Positions 55,401 through 61,400 of a DNA stretch of 64,000 bases are shown here, piece by piece; within the stretch, counting starts at the first letter, position 1; the number at the start of each line of letters is the position of its first letter. Position numbers: made by a program. The DNA is taken from the NCBI RefSeq assembly GCF_045037415.1, contig NZ_CP173438.1; one strand, 5' to 3'. The DNA comes from Escherichia coli (GTDB taxonomy: Bacteria; Pseudomonadota; Gammaproteobacteria; Enterobacterales; Enterobacteriaceae).

Positions 55401-58400
55401 CAGCTTTCTGACAACCCGGCCGCTCCTGCTTTCAACAACGCGCCGCCATACTTTTATGCTGCAAAGAGCGGAGACAGAAGGTTAGCGTAATTTGTAAATA
55501 ACTTACATTCACGTGTGATCTGGATCATAATTTTGCCTATGCACCGATCGTAATATAAATATTTACATAACGATCAGTGATTCATGAAAACTCAAATAAC
55601 TTTCGCTGCGCTTTTGCCAGCATTAGCGTCTTTCATACCGCTTCATGCTCATGCCTCGTCTACTTCTGAAGATGAAATGATTGTCACGGGCAACACCGCC
55701 GCCGACACCACCGATTCTGCCGCCGGTGCCGGTTTCAAAACGAACGATATAGATGTCGGCCCGCTGGGAACGAAATCCTGGATCGAAACACCATATTCCA
55801 GCACCACTGTTACTAAAGAGATGATTGAAAATCAGCAGGCGCAAAGCGTCAGCGAGATGCTGAAATACTCTCCCAGTACGCAAATGCAGGCGCGCGGTGG
55901 AATGGATGTCGGGCGTCCGCAAAGTCGGGGGATGCAGGGCAGCGTGGTGGCCAACAGCCGTCTGGACGGGCTGAATATCGTTTCAACAACCGCGTTTCCG
56001 GTGGAAATGCTTGAGCGCATGGATGTGCTTAACAGTTTGACCGGCGCGCTGTACGGCCCGGCGAGCCCAGCAGGGCAGTTTAATTTCGTGGCGAAGCGCC
56101 CAACCGAAGAGACGCTGCGTAAAGTGACGCTGGGCTATCAAAGCCGCAGTGCGTTTACCGGCCATGCCGATCTGGGTGGCCATTTTGATGAAAACAAACG
56201 GTTTGGCTATCGCGTGAACCTGCTTGATCAGGAAGGGGAAGGCAATGTGCATGACAGCACGCTGCGTCGCAAACTCGTTTCCGTTGCGCTCGACTGGAAT
56301 ATTCAGCCGGGCACTCAGCTACAGCTCGACGCCAGCCATTACGAATTTATCCAGAAAGGCTATGTCGGTAGCTTTAACTATGGGCCGAACGTCAAACTGC
56401 CGTCTGCGCCGAATCCGAAGGACAAAAATCTGGCGCTCAGCACTGCGGGCAACGACCTCACTACCGATACCATCAGCACTCGCCTGATCCACTACTTTAA
56501 CGACGACTGGTCCATGAACGCTGGCGTGGGCTGGCAGCAGGCTGACCGCGCGATGCGTAGTGTTTCCAGTAAAATACTCAACAATCAGGGCGATATCTCT
56601 CGTTCGATGAAGGATTCCACCGCTGCCGGACGTTTTCGCGTCCTGAGCAACACCGCCGGGCTGAATGGTCATATTGATACCGGCTCTATCTGCCACGATC
56701 TGTCACTTTCTACCACGGGATATGTCTGGTCGCTTTATAGTGCCAAAGGAACAGGTTCCAGCTATAGCTGGGGTACAACAAATATGTATCACCCGGATGC
56801 GATAGATGAGCAGGGCGATGGCAAAATCCGCACCGGCGGGCCGCGATACCGCTCCAGCGTAAATACTCAGCAGAGCGTTACGCTCGGCGATACGGTGACA
56901 TTTACGCCGCAGTGGTCGGCAATGTTCTATCTCAGCCAGAGCTGGCTGCAGACTAAAAACTACGATAAGCACGGTAATCAAACGAACCAGGTTGATGAAA
57001 ATGGTTTAAGTCCGAACGCCGCGCTGATGTATAAAATTACCCCTAACACAATGGCCTACGTTAGCTATGCCGATTCGCTGGAGCAGGGCGGTACCGCACC
57101 GACGGATGAGAGCGTAAAAAATGCCGGTCAAACGCTAAACCCGTATCGCAGCAAGCAGTATGAAGTGGGGCTAAAATCGGACATCGGCGAGATGAATCTA
57201 GGCGCCGCGCTGTTCCGACTGGAACGTCCGTTTGCCTATCTTGATACGGATAACGTGTATAAAGAGCAGGGTAACCAGGTTAACAACGGCCTTGAGTTAA
57301 CCGCTGCCGGGAATGTGTGGCAGGGGCTGAATATTTACAGCGGCGTGACCTTCCTCGACCCGAAACTGAAAGATACGGCGAATGCCTCAACCAGCAATAA
57401 ACAGGTTGTCGGCGTGCCGAAAGTGCAGGCCAATCTGTTGGCGGAATACAGTTTGCCGTCCATACCGGAATGGGTTTACAGCGCTAACGTCCATTATACG
57501 GGCAAACGCGCGGCGAACGATACCAACACCTCTTACGCCAGCAGCTATACCACATGGGATTTGGGAACGCGTTACACCACGAAAGTGAGCAACGTCCCAA
57601 CCACTTTCCGCGTGGTGGTAAACAACGTGTTTGATAAACATTACTGGGCTTCTATCTTCCCATCGGGTACCGATGGCGATAACGGTTCCCCAAGTGCGTT
57701 TATCGGCGGCGGCCGCGAAGTGCGTGCATCCGTCACCTTCGATTTCTGATGGATAAATGATGAAACTCTCCCGTTTATTTCCGCTGCTGGCGCTGCTGCT
57801 GGCGGCCAGCCTGCACGCAGAAAATACGCACAAGGAGGTGCGTATCGCGTCACCGTGGCCGGCGCAAAATACCATTATTGCCATGCTGGGGTACGGCGAT
57901 AACATTGTCGGAACCTCGATGATTGCAAAAAGGATCCCCCTGTTTCGCCAGAGCCTGCCGCGCATAGAGAAAGTCGCAGCAGTTAGCGTAAACAGCGGGC
58001 ATGAAATCAATCCCGAACAGATTATCGCGCTGGGGGTCGATATGCTTTTTGTACCGCAGAATATGGTAGTGCCTCAACAGGCGTTGCTGAAACAGGCTGG
58101 GGTGCAGGTGCTGGCGTTTGAGGCGAATTCACTGCGGGCGTTAACGCAGCGCGTACAGCAAACGGCAGCGGTGCTGGGGCCCGATGCGCAGCAAAAAGCG
58201 CTCGCCTATCAACGCTACTTCGATCGCAACGTGGCCCTGGTCACCGGGCGCCTGAAAGATCTTCCTGCGTCACAGCGCGTGTCGCTCTATCACAGTATGG
58301 GCAATCCGCTGACCACCACCGGTAGACCCTCGCTAAACCAGGACTGGATTGACCTGGCCGGCGGCAAAAATATCGCTGAAAATTGGTTTGGCGAGCATCA

Positions 58401-61400
58401 ACAAAACCGTTCGGGTGAAGTCGCGCTGGAGAAAATTGTCACTGCCAATCCGGCGGTTATCATCGCGATGAACAAGCGCGACGCGGATGCCATTCTGAGT
58501 TCTCCGCAGTGGGCAAGCGTGGACGCGGTCATTCATCATCGCGTTTACGTTAATCCGAAAGGAATGTTCTGGTGGTGCCGTGAAACCAGCGAAGAGGCGC
58601 TGCAATTTTTGTGGCTGGCGAAAACGCTTTATCCTGCGCGATTTGCTGATGTGGATATACGCAAAGAGACGCGTGAGTTTTATCGGCAGTTCTTTGGCCT
58701 GACGTTAAGCGATGCGCAGATGAGCGATGTGCTCAATCCGCCGCGCTAACGGAGGCTGTGAAAAACCATGACTGTATTGGAAAGTACGCTGTCGGTCGAG
58801 AACCGCTATCGCCAGCTTTTTCGCCAGCGTCTGGTAATACTGGCGGTTATTTTTATCGCTATCATTGCTTCGCTGCTGCTCGATTTCACCCTCGGCCCCT
58901 CAGGGCTCCCTTTACATTCGCTGATAAAGACTTTGATGCATCCGTCCGGGGCGACTAACGGCATGCGGGTTATCGTTTGGGACATCCGTTTGCCCTATGC
59001 GCTGATGGCGCTCCTGGTAGGAATGGCGCTGGGTTTGGCCGGGGCAGAGATGCAAACTATTCTGAATAACTCCCTCGCCAGCCCGTTTACGCTTGGCGTT
59101 TCGTCGGCGGCGGCCTTTGGCGCAGCGCTGGCGATTGTTCTGGGCATCGGTATTCCCGGCGTTCCCGAAAGCGGGTTTATACCGGCAAACGCTTTTCTTT
59201 TTGCGCTCCTGTCCGCCCTGCTGCTCGATAGTCTGACCCGCTGGACGCGCGTGCCGACGTCGGGCGTTGTGCTGTTTGGGATTGCGCTGGTGTTTACCTT
59301 CAATGCGCTGGTGTCCATTATGCAGTTTGTCGCCGATGAAGATACTTTGCAGGGCCTGGTGTTCTGGACGATGGGCAGCCTGGCTCGCGCATCATGGGAG
59401 AAACTGGCGGTGCTGGCGGCGGCGATGGCGATTGTTTTACCCTGGTCGCTGCGTCGTGCCTGGCAGCTTACCGCGCTACGCCTCGGCGAAGAGCGGGCGA
59501 TGAGTTTTGGCATTGATGTTCGCCGTTTGCGCCTGGGTTCCCTGCTGCGCATCAGCCTGCTGGCGGCCCTTTCGGTTGCGTTTGTGGGGCCAATTGGCTT
59601 TATTGGCCTGGTTGCACCGCATATTTCCCGCCTGTTGCTGGGAGAAGATCATCGCTTTTATTTGCCCGGAAGCATCCTTATCGGTGGGCTGGTGCTATCG
59701 CTGGCCTCGGTAGCGTCGAAGAACATCATTCCCGGTGTCATTTTACCGGTAGGAATTGTTACCTCGCTGGTAGGCGTTCCGTTCTTTCTGAGCATTGTAA
59801 TGCGTCATCGAGGGAGTATGTCATGAGCGGGCTTACGATTAATGCGCTGTGCGCCGGTTACGGCAAACGGCGGATTATTGAGCATCTGTCGATTTCTACG
59901 CTGCCGCGCGGCGAAGTCACTGTACTGCTGGGGCCTAATGGCTGCGGTAAATCAACGCTACTGCGCGCCCTGGCCGGGCTAAATCGCGCCAGTGGCGAAG
60001 CCTGGCTGAATGAAGAGAATCTCTTATCGCTGCCGTTTGCTCGTCGGGCTGAAAAAGTTGTGTTCCTGCCGCAGTCCCTGCCGCAGGGCGTGCATTTACA
60101 GGTGCTGGAGTCGGTGGTTGTCGCCCAGCGCGCCTCCGGCGCCGGGCAAAATCAGGCGCAGGCTATAGCGCTGCTCGAAGAGCTAGGCATCGCACATCTG
60201 GCAATGAACTACCTCGATAGCCTGTCCGGCGGTCAGAAGCAGCTGGTGGGGCTTGCACAGTCGCTTATTCGCCGCCCCGAATTATTATTGCTGGATGAAC
60301 CACTGAGCGCGCTGGATCTCAATTATCAGTTCCATGTGATGGATGTTGTATCGCGCGAAACGCGAAGACGCAATATGGTTACGCTGGTCGTCTTACACGA
60401 TATCAATATCGCACTGCGGCATGCCGCCCAGGTCATCATGCTGAAAGAGGGGAAACTTATCGACAGCGGCGACCCGCAAACGGTGATCCATGCAGAGAGC
60501 CTTGCGCAGGTATACGGCGTACGCGGGAGAGTTGAACGTTGTGCTCAGGGAAGATCGATGGTGATAGTGGATGGTGCAATCGAAAAATAGTCGGATTAAC
60601 GTGGTTGCTTCAGCCTCAGGTAAAGATCAATAGGAAGTCTGTAATGCAACATATAGACCGCCTTAATGTCATTAAAGCACTTGTGCTTCTAGAAGATGAG
60701 CAGATTGTTCGTTTTAACATCGCTGCGAACGATAACGCCTCGCAGATCCACATGCTCGTTGACGGTCTGGGCGTCGGGCTGACACATGAGCCTGTCGCTG
60801 CCGGAATGATTTCGCACCGGACAGCTTGTCACCGTTCTAGGCAACATGACAGACCTGCGCATTCCTATTTCTATTATCTATCCGCCTACCAAGTTGCTTA
60901 ATGTCAGGCTAAGGCCCTTTAATGACTGGATTTCAGACCGATTTTCTGGACAGCCGAGCGGGTAAATCGCAGTACACTGACAGCTAGACAATAAAGCTCC
61001 GGTTCATGTTTGAACCATGTGTAGTGAATGTCCGCTGTTCGCTCACAACGGACCTTCAGTTCAGCCGCTCCGGCCGCTTCATGCCATGAATGTACGCAGC
61101 CAGTCAGAATATTAAGGTGCGGATTTCAGTTCACTTGTCAGCGCCAGTGACACAAGACAGTAATGACCAACAATTTGGTATTGACACAACAAGTTGCGGC
61201 CCCGGTTCGTGGAGGAGATTAAACGACTGTAGCCGGGGCCACTGAGTAAGCGTCAACGGAGCACCGTATTGACGCTTATTTATTGGTGAGTACTACGTTC
61301 CATGGCAGGAGTTCGTCAACTCGGTTGGAAGGCCATTCCGGCAGTACGCTCAGGATATGGCGCAGATACGCTTCCGGATCGATACCGTTCAGACGGCAGG

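Follow-up and report, generated by a model that had tools for sequence, protein, structure and literature searches.

The window analysed here, a stretch of 64,000 nucleotides of Escherichia coli DNA, contains a four-gene cassette which probably encodes an importer that scavenges molybdenum under repression by ModE and not under the control of Fur; we infer ModE binding, the direction of the regulation and the substrate from sequence. The cassette is considered a probable molybdenum-starvation uptake system because its promoter carries a conserved ModE site and no Fur site. Going further, we give about an even chance to the proposition that it represents the first TonB-dependent molybdenum (or tungsten) system recognised in the Enterobacteriaceae, ModE-repressed and CRP/FNR-activated, core in Citrobacter and related genera and borne by an island into ExPEC (ST131, CFT073 and Nissle-type strains). 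The TonB-dependent receptors of E. coli are routinely classed as iron systems, and hence as virulence or vaccine candidates; the receptor of this cassette appears to answer to molybdenum. The sequence-only reading, which had taken the cassette for an iron or haem uptake system, named no substrate; this we accept, and molybdenum is our own proposal.

Composition of the cassette

The cassette consists of four intact, tightly packed genes on the + strand, coding for a TonB-dependent receptor, a periplasmic binding protein, a FecCD permease and an ABC ATPase (Table 1). The intergenic gaps measure 7 nt and then 18 nt, and the permease and ATPase genes share a 4-nt overlap. The four gene families and the operon-like packing claimed in the sequence-only reading are thereby confirmed, with ORFs exactly where it had placed them and Pfam domains in agreement: Plug PF07715 (residues 68-164, 9e-16) and TonB_dep_Rec_b-barrel PF00593 (residues 249-682, 4.5e-36) in the receptor, Peripla_BP_2 (8e-23) in the binding protein, FecCD (4.8e-82) in the permease and ABC_tran (2e-28) in the ATPase. 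The genes are also intact, as had been claimed: the frameshift named beforehand as counting against this is absent from the cassette, its DNA matches at 100% identity other genomes whose annotation shows each of the four genes as intact, and the protein lengths agree with those of the orthologues. The orthologous cassette of strain CFT073 is c2518-c2515 (99.6% DNA identity), where the numbering of c2515 was set by the coordinate of c2514 (PMC5320621) and the CFT073 annotation.

Table 1. Predicted promoter elements and genes of the cassette, in positions of the window
Feature	Position	Strand	Remarks
Predicted CRP/FNR-family activator box TGTGATCTGGATCATA	55514..55529	+	centre 55521.5
Predicted ModE (molybdate-responsive repressor) operator ATCGTAATATAAATATTTACATAACGAT	55547..55574	+	28 bp; ends 10 nt 5' of receptor ATG
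Candidate -10 hexamer TAATAT	55551..55556	+	putative; within ModE site
TonB-dependent outer-membrane receptor, 721 aa	55584..57749	+	c2518 orthologue (CFT073); WP_000856948.1
Periplasmic binding protein, signal peptide, 329-330 aa	57757..58749	+	c2517; WP_000778018.1; MolA-like subfamily of Peripla_BP_2; start at 57760 according to PGAP (identical strain 4/1-1)
FecCD-family permease, 352 aa	58768..59826	+	c2516; WP_000217077.1
ABC ATPase, 255 aa	59823..60590	+	c2515; WP_000016207.1

The N-terminus of the receptor reads MKTQITFAALLPALASFIPLHAHA followed by SSTSEDEMIVTG, and its C-terminal end is ...VTFDF; the signal peptide, a TonB-box-like DEMIVTG motif and the C-terminal Phe were read by eye from the sequence, with no dedicated predictor. 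Judged from its plug and barrel, signal peptide, TonB box and C-terminal aromatic residue, the protein is classed as a TonB-dependent transporter, whose transport would depend on TonB-ExbBD. By domain content, the FecCD permease, the cluster A binding protein (Peripla_BP_2) and their own ATPase constitute a type II (BtuCD/HmuUV/MolBC-like) ABC importer, and since there is only one permease gene, a homodimeric type II importer is implied.

The promoter and its predicted regulators

The E. coli ModE operator has the consensus ATCGNTATATA-N6-TATATANCGAT (PMC545781). The predicted operator upstream of the receptor agrees with it at 18 of 20 positions, and at three or fewer mismatches it is the sole match in 64 kb, with no match in any of 100 shuffles. 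By the same scoring, the ModE sites of K-12 reach 16/20 (modA), 16/20 (moaA) and 17/20 (dmsA), and the runner-up matches in these three regions reach 11-12/20. A scan of ~330 kb of unrelated loci at four or fewer mismatches gave no matches other than the receptor-upstream sites and the true modA operators. The site is kept 5' of 37 orthologues, which come from over 20 enterobacterial genera and whose promoter sequences all differ, and it is the top match within each of the 37 loci (up to ~16 kb in length). Across the 37 promoters, the information content is 1.6-2.0 bits at most half-site positions and about zero in the spacer centre and the flanks, its maxima coinciding with the consensus positions. 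Going by this consensus match, the promoter carries a predicted ModE operator, which ModE would be expected to bind in vivo.

Outside the enterobacteria, ModE-like sites with 3-4 mismatches precede the orthologues of two Burkholderia genomes and of Nitrobacter winogradskyi, and a weaker one (6 mismatches) precedes that of Sulfurospirillum. In one Burkholderia genome, the orthologous receptor with its ModE-like site is directly followed by a ModA-family molybdate-binding protein (above the TIGR01256 cutoff), which favours the molybdenum reading. Several distant orthologues (Azotobacter, Shewanella, Azoarcus) lack a site of the E. coli type, which we count against the molybdenum reading.

A scan for Fur boxes had been called for by the sequence-only reading. 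No match to the 19-bp consensus was found at the promoter at three or fewer mismatches; the best score, 12/19, is reached at 119 positions of the window and thus represents background. The Fur ChIP-exo data of CFT073 (PMC10164565, Dataset 2) include a peak at hma and list none at the cassette promoter (~2357470-2357897), the list being empty between 2322254 and 2470784. With neither a Fur box nor Fur occupancy found, the cassette does not qualify as a Fur-regulated iron uptake operon, and the suggestion of iron or haem uptake is left with no regulatory support, a conserved ModE operator being found instead. Two further ideas, a TyrR box and phase variation through Dam/GATC sites, were dropped, as neither the spacing of the former nor the GATC sites of the latter are kept in Citrobacter.

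Upstream of the ModE site lies a predicted box of the CRP/FNR type, for which either protein is a candidate binder: it scores 9/10 against CRP, a value reached at only 2 positions of the 64 kb, and 8/10 against FNR, whose binding would fit the anaerobic need for molybdoenzymes. In 30 of the 37 orthologous promoters, a TTGAT-N4-ATCAA-like box (at least 8/10) starts 31-34 nt 5' of the ModE site, compared with 0.37% of positions at other offsets. The box would be of class II if transcription starts near 55563, and the candidate -10 hexamer lies where it would be expected in a class II promoter whose activator box is at -41.5; the hexamer is invariant in the orthologues because it forms part of the ModE half-site. 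A generic promoter scan proposes a different promoter (CTTACA/CATAAT, 55502-55531). With either promoter, the ModE site is positioned at or 3' of the transcription start.

In the mechanism we propose, the four genes would form one operon for the receptor, the binding protein and the homodimeric type II importer. With enough molybdate present, ModE-molybdate would occupy the operator over the -10/start region and prevent transcription. Under molybdenum scarcity the operator would be vacant, and an activator of the CRP/FNR family, bound one class II distance upstream, would induce the operon. The receptor would then bind scarce extracellular molybdenum (or tungsten) species, as the oxyanion or as a small chelate, and, energised through TonB, hand them to the MolA-like binding protein and onward to the ABC importer.

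Relationships of the proteins and the nature of the substrate

With 287.3 bits for NCBIfam TIGR01783 (cutoff 223.5), the receptor belongs to the subfamily of TonB-dependent siderophore receptors, and none of the NCBIfam equivalog models (FhuA, FoxA, FauA and others) comes near its own cutoff. Among solved receptors, FemA (231 bits), BauA (200 bits), FetA and FhuA are closest, and CntO is one of the sequence relatives. This subfamily placement, and the binding of ferric siderophores by the closest solved relatives, weigh against the molybdenum reading. Free molybdate is, moreover, small enough to pass through porins, so that a TonB-dependent receptor is not obviously needed.

In the case of the binding protein, a profile of its family searched against the PDB returned MolA (HI_1472) as second best (E 5.5e-28). 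The AF2 model (pLDDT 88.5) gave 4ovk as the first and MolA (3psa; E 4.6e-17, TM 0.75) as the second Foldseek match. Sequence identity to MolA is about 24%, and YiuA, CeuE and proteins without an assigned ligand score nearly as well. MolA appears, from sequence and model, to be the closest relative with a defined ligand, which speaks for molybdenum; Foldseek, for its part, leaves it unseparated from iron-chelate binders (YiuA) and from the nickel-histidine binder CeuE, another point that tells against the molybdenum reading. MolA serves the type II importer MolBC as binding protein for molybdate/tungstate (PMC9171197). The closest solved relatives of the permease are HmuU, BhuU, MolB (HI1471), FhuB and BtuC.

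These relationships also bear on a possible, though rather unlikely, alternative proposed by Gao et al., in which the cassette imports a ferric chelate (a xenosiderophore) to supply iron under the control of a factor other than Fur. Gao et al. (2021; PMC8075096) studied c2515/c2516 as an iron transporter at the GI-CFT073-cobU locus of APEC O1 strain E516, where deletion led to slower growth under dipyridyl, less cell iron, a smaller CAS halo and reduced virulence. These phenotypes of iron limitation, for which the authors had no explanation, favour the xenosiderophore and count against molybdenum, and the siderophore-type receptor, the likeness of permease and ATPase to iron-complex and haem importers and the structural closeness of YiuA and other iron-chelate binders point the same way. 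A xenosiderophore importer, however, would leave the conserved ModE operator without an explanation, and the promoter shows no Fur box and no listed Fur peak. In addition, a ModA-family protein replaces the binding protein beside the Burkholderia orthologue, and siderophore biosynthesis genes adjoin the cassette in none of the genomes examined.

We consider it improbable that the cassette imports another metal chelate (nickel-histidine, or a cobalt/zinc metallophore) or a cofactor-sized molecule, with only indirect control by molybdenum. Type II importers (BtuCD, HmuUV, FhuBC) usually move large chelates or cofactors, the binding protein also resembles the nickel-(His)2 binder CeuE and proteins without an assigned ligand, and distant clusters have an extra methyltransferase-like gene. 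Against this, NikR, Zur and MntR motifs at the promoter are at background level, an Rfam search for riboswitches or other RNA elements 5' of the receptor returned nothing at E up to 1, and the known ModE sites of E. coli serve molybdenum transport, cofactor synthesis and molybdoenzymes.

Haem uptake seems to us very improbable. In NCBIfam the ATPase comes closest to a haem ABC ATPase, and in the PDB the permease comes closest to HmuU, neither of them reaching the family cutoff; the receptor, however, scores only 52.8 bits for the haem receptor family TIGR01785 (cutoff 316.85), and the haem binders ShuT, PhuT, BhuT and HmuT rank far below MolA, YiuA and CeuE in Foldseek (TM 0.56-0.63). On these two results and the low identity of the receptor to Hma, the cassette falls outside the haem uptake class of the ChuA/Hma/HemR type, and Fur control is absent as well.

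The receptor is likewise distinct from the haem receptor Hma (c2482; PMC2736566). Both are TonB-dependent receptors of the same cobU-side island of B2 strains, but their sequences are unrelated (23% identity over the plug only), CFT073 has both genes, ~33-35 kb apart, and Hma is a stand-alone gene under Fur control, with a ChIP-exo peak in CFT073 and a gel-shifted cluster of Fur sites at K-12 yoeA. The sequence-only reading had regarded yoeA as a disrupted copy of the window receptor, which proved incorrect: over 102 aa, yoeA fragment 1 shows 100% identity with the N-terminus of the receptor encoded beside cobU in CFT073, and the position, length and locus-tag order of that receptor lead us to take it for Hma/c2482. 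The ABC genes are indeed absent from K-12, as had been stated, a blastn search of its CP4-44 region giving no match.

Known systems, distribution and genomic setting

The four genes occur in the same order and with the same flanking genes as CFT073 c2515-c2518, of which the published work covered the ATPase and permease only, the promoter, receptor and binding protein being outside its scope (PMC8075096). Our literature search yielded no paper naming c2517 or c2518, no mention of a ModE operator or of a lack of Fur control at c2515-c2518, and no ModE-regulated TonB-dependent receptor; an earlier computational prediction, for instance in a regulon database such as RegPrecise, is possible.

Like MolBC-A of Haemophilus influenzae (HI1470/71/72; molybdate/tungstate), the cassette combines just one FecCD permease gene with one ATPase, together with a binding protein of MolA-like fold and C-terminal motifs. 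It differs in the low identity to MolA and in a permease slightly nearer to HmuU than to MolB, and MolBC-A is not known to have a TonB-dependent receptor or a ModE operator. The high-affinity molybdate transporter of E. coli, ModABC, is repressed by ModE; its operator and the predicted operator of the cassette have the same consensus and lie just 5' of the first gene, and the right half-site (TACATAACG) is identical to that of the modA operators of K-12 and C. koseri. ModABC, in contrast, is of an entirely different transporter class, in which ModA is a cluster D binding protein, the permease is of type I and an outer-membrane receptor is lacking. Metals other than iron are served by several TonB-dependent receptors, among them the Zur-regulated ZnuD, the pseudopaline receptor CntO and the nickel receptor FrpB4. 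The cassette receptor, if controlled by ModE, would resemble these in being under a sensor of the metal supplied, but a counterpart under ModE control was not found in the literature searches.

If the molybdenum reading is correct, molybdenum joins the metals that Enterobacteriaceae scavenge with outer-membrane energy. The cassette may then account in part for the way in which nitrate, DMSO, TMAO and formate enzymes are provided for under molybdate scarcity in ExPEC, Citrobacter and related genera. In the ExPEC lineages it would ensure a molybdenum supply to those enzymes of anaerobic respiration by which growth is driven in the inflamed gut and the urinary tract. Tungstate sensitivity might change too, and the unexplained APEC c2515/c2516 phenotypes would be worth re-examining.

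The cassette is accessory in E. coli, as the sequence-only reading had supposed, and not core in most strains: at least 80% of it is present, at an identity of at least 99%, in 899 of 5426 complete genomes (~17%), with ST131 among the carriers. It does not form the border of an island, as had been thought, since in CFT073 and strain 4/1-1 it sits midway within the cobU-side island and has IS elements on its flanks. The cassette appears to have entered E. coli horizontally: Citrobacter and related genera have it on the chromosome between aroG and gpmA. In Citrobacter it lies ~5 kb from modF-modE-acrZ-modA, in favour of the molybdenum reading. Related loci were compared in a 9-sequence alignment, and the non-enteric orthologues are found in heavy molybdenum users (Azotobacter, Azoarcus, Nitrobacter, Paracoccus denitrificans, Shewanella and Sulfurospirillum), which also supports molybdenum. 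Dynamin-like, RdcB-like and patatin genes, which gave only marginal matches in PADLOC, lie upstream of the cassette and flank it in the window and in CFT073 alike.

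Composition and setting of the cassette

The four reading frames of the cassette occupy exactly the positions assigned to them in the sequence-only reading, all on the + strand, and they are tightly packed: gaps of 7 and 18 nt separate the first three, and the last two genes share 4 nt. The gene families also hold in Pfam (Plug and TonB-dependent barrel, Peripla_BP_2, FecCD and ABC_tran; E values of about 1e-16 to 1e-82), and the cassette is intact, its DNA being 100% identical to that of genomes annotated with four intact genes. The receptor starts with a signal peptide, contains a TonB-box-like DEMIVTG motif and ends in Phe; the binding protein likewise carries a signal peptide.

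The locus is already catalogued, and its earlier account needs correction in three respects: yoeA, the metal, and the position on the island. In the ExPEC strain CFT073 the orthologous genes are C_RS11950-11935 (2352463-2357469; 99.6% identity). Position 2350649 of that genome is +200 of c2514 (PMC5320621); the ATPase is therefore c2515, the permease c2516, the binding protein c2517 and the receptor c2518, in agreement with Gao et al., who place c2516 upstream of c2515 (PMC8075096).

The window runs from the colanic-acid genes through the O25 O-antigen cluster, gnd, ugd, wzzB, the his operon and sbcB-dacD-sbmC-yeeA-tmaR into the island. The cassette had been described as bordering this island; in CFT073 and in strain 4/1-1, an E. 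coli with DNA identical to the cassette, it lies in the middle part of the cobU-side island, among IS elements. The match of the window to both genomes stops at 61245. Where the window has an IS66-family transposase gene, they have a c2514-type hypothetical gene; c2514 is a reported NsrR ChIP target in CFT073 (PMC5320621). ISEc12 (IS21 family) is present in one copy in the window and in two tandem copies in strain 4/1-1, both of which align to the same window stretch. The conserved four-gene block that diverges from the receptor also flanks the cassette in these two genomes; it may be a defence or membrane-remodelling module, with marginal PADLOC matches only (LeoBC, 3e-5; phospholipase effector, 9.5e-5).

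Features of the cassette and of compared loci (positions in the window, or in loci of other genomes, designated L, with their own coordinates)
Feature	Position	Strand	Remarks
O-antigen cluster	about 8700-19400		O25 type; O25-family flippase annotated in identical strain
ISEc12	47097-49679
Divergent four-gene block	50150-55194	-	small P-loop protein (157 aa); dynamin-family GTPase, CrfC-like (794 aa); YjcZ/RdcB-family protein (301 aa); patatin-like phospholipase (356 aa)
CRP/FNR-type box	55514-55529		TGTGATCTGGATCATA; CRP 9/10, FNR 8/10
Predicted ModE operator	55547-55574		ATCGTAATATAAATATTTACATAACGAT; half-sites CGTAATATA and TACATAACG (right); beside receptor start codon
Receptor	55584-57749	+	721 aa
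Binding protein	57757-58749	+	330 aa
Permease	58768-59826	+	352 aa
ATPase	59823-60590	+	255 aa
IS66-family transposase gene	61276-62889	-	537 aa, intact; after match end
yoeA fragment 1, K-12	L003:6636-6941
cobU-adjacent receptor, CFT073	L002:32325-34472		715 aa
ModE-type sites, rare E. coli variant	L009:3872-3899, L010:422-449		altered flanks (ACCATAATATAATAAATTATATAACGCT)
Methyltransferase-like genes	L046:9000-9797, L041:9039-9878, L044:9109-9933, L048:9087-9884, L052:4082-4921, L051:11920-12750		about 270 aa

Within E. coli the cassette is accessory rather than core: 899 of the 5426 complete genomes contain it in full, at an identity of at least 99%, and about 65 more show a partial match, the two listed examples consisting of the first 556 nt abutting a transposase. 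Among the carriers are O25b:H4-ST131 strains, the Nissle-derived SYNB1934 and Seattle 1946, and the O25-type cluster of the window is in keeping with the 100% cassette matches in ST131-type genomes. A rare second E. coli variant (receptor 87% identical), which retains a ModE-type site, has other surroundings, made up of MFS, PTS and transposase genes.

K-12 yoeA, previously regarded as a disrupted copy of the window receptor, is unrelated to it at the DNA level. Its first fragment instead matches the N-terminal end of the CFT073 receptor beside cobU, with 100% identity along 102 aa; from its position and the order of locus tags, we take this CFT073 receptor to be Hma/c2482. The window receptor shares 23% identity with that protein, over part of the plug only. 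K-12 yoeA is thus an IS2-interrupted remnant of the haem receptor gene hma. The absence of the ABC genes from K-12 was borne out, the CP4-44 region giving no blastn match to the cassette; K-12 has therefore lost hma and never shows the cassette.

A predicted ModE operator and its conservation

The promoter was aligned with those of the Citrobacter koseri and C. rodentium cassettes (receptors 85% and 81% identical), and two conserved blocks emerged. One contains a predicted operator for ModE, the molybdate-responsive repressor, whose E. coli consensus is ATCGNTATATA-N6-TATATANCGAT (PMC545781). This is the sole ModE match in the 64 kb at up to three mismatches, and none of 100 shuffles produced one. 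For calibration we used modA, moaA and dmsA of K-12, which are well-known ModE targets: the receptor site scores 18/20, compared with 17/20 for the site upstream of dmsA, 16/20 for both the modA operator and the site upstream of moaA, and 11-12/20 for the next best sites in those three regions. K-12 and C. koseri share this right half-site in their modA operators. Loci fetched for other purposes, about 330 kb in all, contain sites with up to four mismatches only upstream of receptors and at the two real modA operators. Judged from the sequence, ModE very likely binds this site.

A scan of species-representative genomes provided 57 loci with relatives of the receptor (identity 27-100%), several of them fragments and two of them weak, partial matches. 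The best ModE-type site is found a short distance upstream of the receptor gene in 37 enterobacterial promoters (the window, 34 scanned loci and two fetched earlier) from more than 20 genera, among them Pseudocitrobacter, Cedecea, Kluyvera, Pluralibacter, Klebsiella, Citrobacter, Serratia, Providencia, Pantoea, Erwinia, Mixta and Pectobacterium. These sites mostly have 1-3 mismatches, and each is the top match of a locus of up to about 16 kb. All 37 promoter sequences are distinct; information reaches 1.6-2.0 bits at most half-site positions (CG.AATATA, TAYATA.CG) and is about 0 in the spacer centre and flanks, a pattern indicative of selection on the surface that a protein contacts, as opposed to recent common descent. 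Farther afield, ModE-like sites precede the orthologues of two Burkholderia genomes (4 mismatches) and Nitrobacter winogradskyi (3), and a weaker, modA operator-like site (6) that of Sulfurospirillum; in the scanned loci of Azotobacter, Azoarcus and Shewanella no E. coli-type site was found.

Promoter model and search for iron control

The second conserved element is a CRP/FNR-family box (TTGAT-N4-ATCAA, at least 8/10). In 30 of the 37 promoters its start precedes the ModE site by 31-34 nt, such scores occurring at 0.37% of positions at other offsets. Half-sites of the GTGAT and ATCAA types are mixed across species, so that the binder may be either CRP or FNR. Taken as a class II site at -41.5, the box would put the transcription start near 55563 and make TAATAT, at 55551-55556, the -10 element; the span of the ModE site would then be about -16 to +12, a placement resembling that of the modA operator. 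A generic promoter scan proposes an alternative promoter at 55502-55531, from which the ModE site would lie just downstream of the start; on either promoter, its position predicts repression. Four GATC (Dam) sites fall in 55518-55576, within 60 bp of the promoter; two belong to the CRP/FNR-type box, and the other two mark the ends of the ModE site. Their conservation in Citrobacter is only partial, so that an effect of methylation is hypothetical.

The proposal of an iron or haem importer finds no counterpart in Fur control. The 19-bp Fur consensus has no match at up to three mismatches in the 390 bp upstream of the receptor, where the best score, 12/19, recurs at 119 window positions. In the CFT073 Fur ChIP-exo data, a peak at 2322254, before hma, is followed by the next at 2470784 (PMC10164565, Dataset 2), and none thus falls at the cassette promoter (about 2357470-2357897). 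A very strong, gel-shift-verified Fur site cluster, the strongest predicted in K-12, has been reported at yoeA (PMC2189734); since yoeA is a dead hma, this cluster lies upstream of the hma remnant and is uninformative on the cassette. Zur, NikR and MntR motifs gave background-level matches only, and an Rfam scan of the upstream region found nothing.

A Fur-independent importer of a ferric chelate is an unlikely alternative reading, which nevertheless draws on the family of the receptor and on mutant phenotypes. The receptor belongs to the siderophore-receptor subfamily TIGR01783 (287 bits; cutoff 223.5), and among solved structures it is closest to FemA (mycobactin), BauA (acinetobactin) and FetA (enantio-pyochelin), then to FhuA, CntO and FoxA. 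Gao et al. deleted c2515 and c2516, the two genes to which their study was confined, in APEC O1 E516. The mutants grow normally in LB and more slowly in dipyridyl-treated minimal medium, with rescue by FeCl3; their cell iron is 2-7-fold lower, the CAS halo smaller, and entA, fepC and iutA transcripts reduced; they survive worse in macrophages, with a 5-10-fold shift in LD50 and decreased organ colonisation (PMC8075096). A search of journal papers returned none on c2517/c2518 or on a ModE-regulated TonB-dependent receptor.

Ligand and gene neighbourhood

The mechanism with the best support is a TonB-dependent importer for scarce molybdenum that ModE represses and a CRP/FNR-family protein activates, and we consider it somewhat probable that the cargo contains molybdenum or tungsten. 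The binding protein belongs to a subfamily in which MolA (HI_1472), which binds molybdate and tungstate for the type II importer MolBC (PMC9171197), is the one protein of defined ligand among the three best PDB matches. A PDB search with the family profile ranks MolA second (E = 5.5e-28). MolA is also second, at a TM-score of 0.75, in a Foldseek search with the AF2 model of the binding protein (pLDDT 88.5). In that search YiuA (iron-catecholate) and CeuE (nickel-histidine) come almost as close, as do proteins of unknown ligand; the protein evidence is therefore compatible with a molybdenum ligand, not decisive. The permease is about equally related to HmuU, BhuU, MolB, FhuB and BtuC, and for none of the four proteins does a substrate-specific equivalog model of NCBIfam come near its cutoff. 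Induction restricted to the absence of molybdenum and vanadium is reported for three other TonB-dependent receptor operons, in Azotobacter vinelandii (PMC9542535); molybdenum-linked TonB-dependent uptake therefore has a precedent outside the enterics. As speculation, uptake of a molybdate-catecholate complex would reconcile the molybdenum and iron readings and link the system to the enterobactin pool.

With few exceptions, the receptor and binding-protein genes adjoin in the loci examined. They are followed by the permease and ATPase genes only in E. coli, Citrobacter, Klebsiella spallanzanii, Pluralibacter, Cedecea colo, Yokenella and a few others; in the loci examined from Serratia, Providencia, Pantoea, Erwinia, Mixta and Pectobacterium the permease and ATPase genes are not next to the pair. 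In many Enterobacterales the pair stands alone behind a ModE site (e.g., loci L027, L030, L037 and L016; Serratia, Providencia, Pectobacterium and Kluyvera ascorbata). At such loci, the binding protein may hand its cargo to ModBC or dock on another FecCD importer. In one Burkholderia genome, a ModE-like site and the receptor are followed by a ModA-family molybdate-binding protein (TIGR01256, 67.8 with a cutoff of 62.5; molybdate-binding-protein equivalog, 255 bits).

No biosynthesis or regulator gene lies beside the cassette in any locus examined. The cassette is found between aroG and gpmA in Citrobacter, Pseudocitrobacter, Kluyvera, Pluralibacter and K. spallanzanii, in C. koseri about 5 kb from modF-modE-acrZ-modA. 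The distant orthologous clusters of Azotobacter, Nitrobacter, Paracoccus, Azoarcus, Sulfurospirillum and Shewanella contain a SAM-methyltransferase-like gene, absent from the enterobacterial cassettes and mostly situated between the receptor and binding-protein genes.
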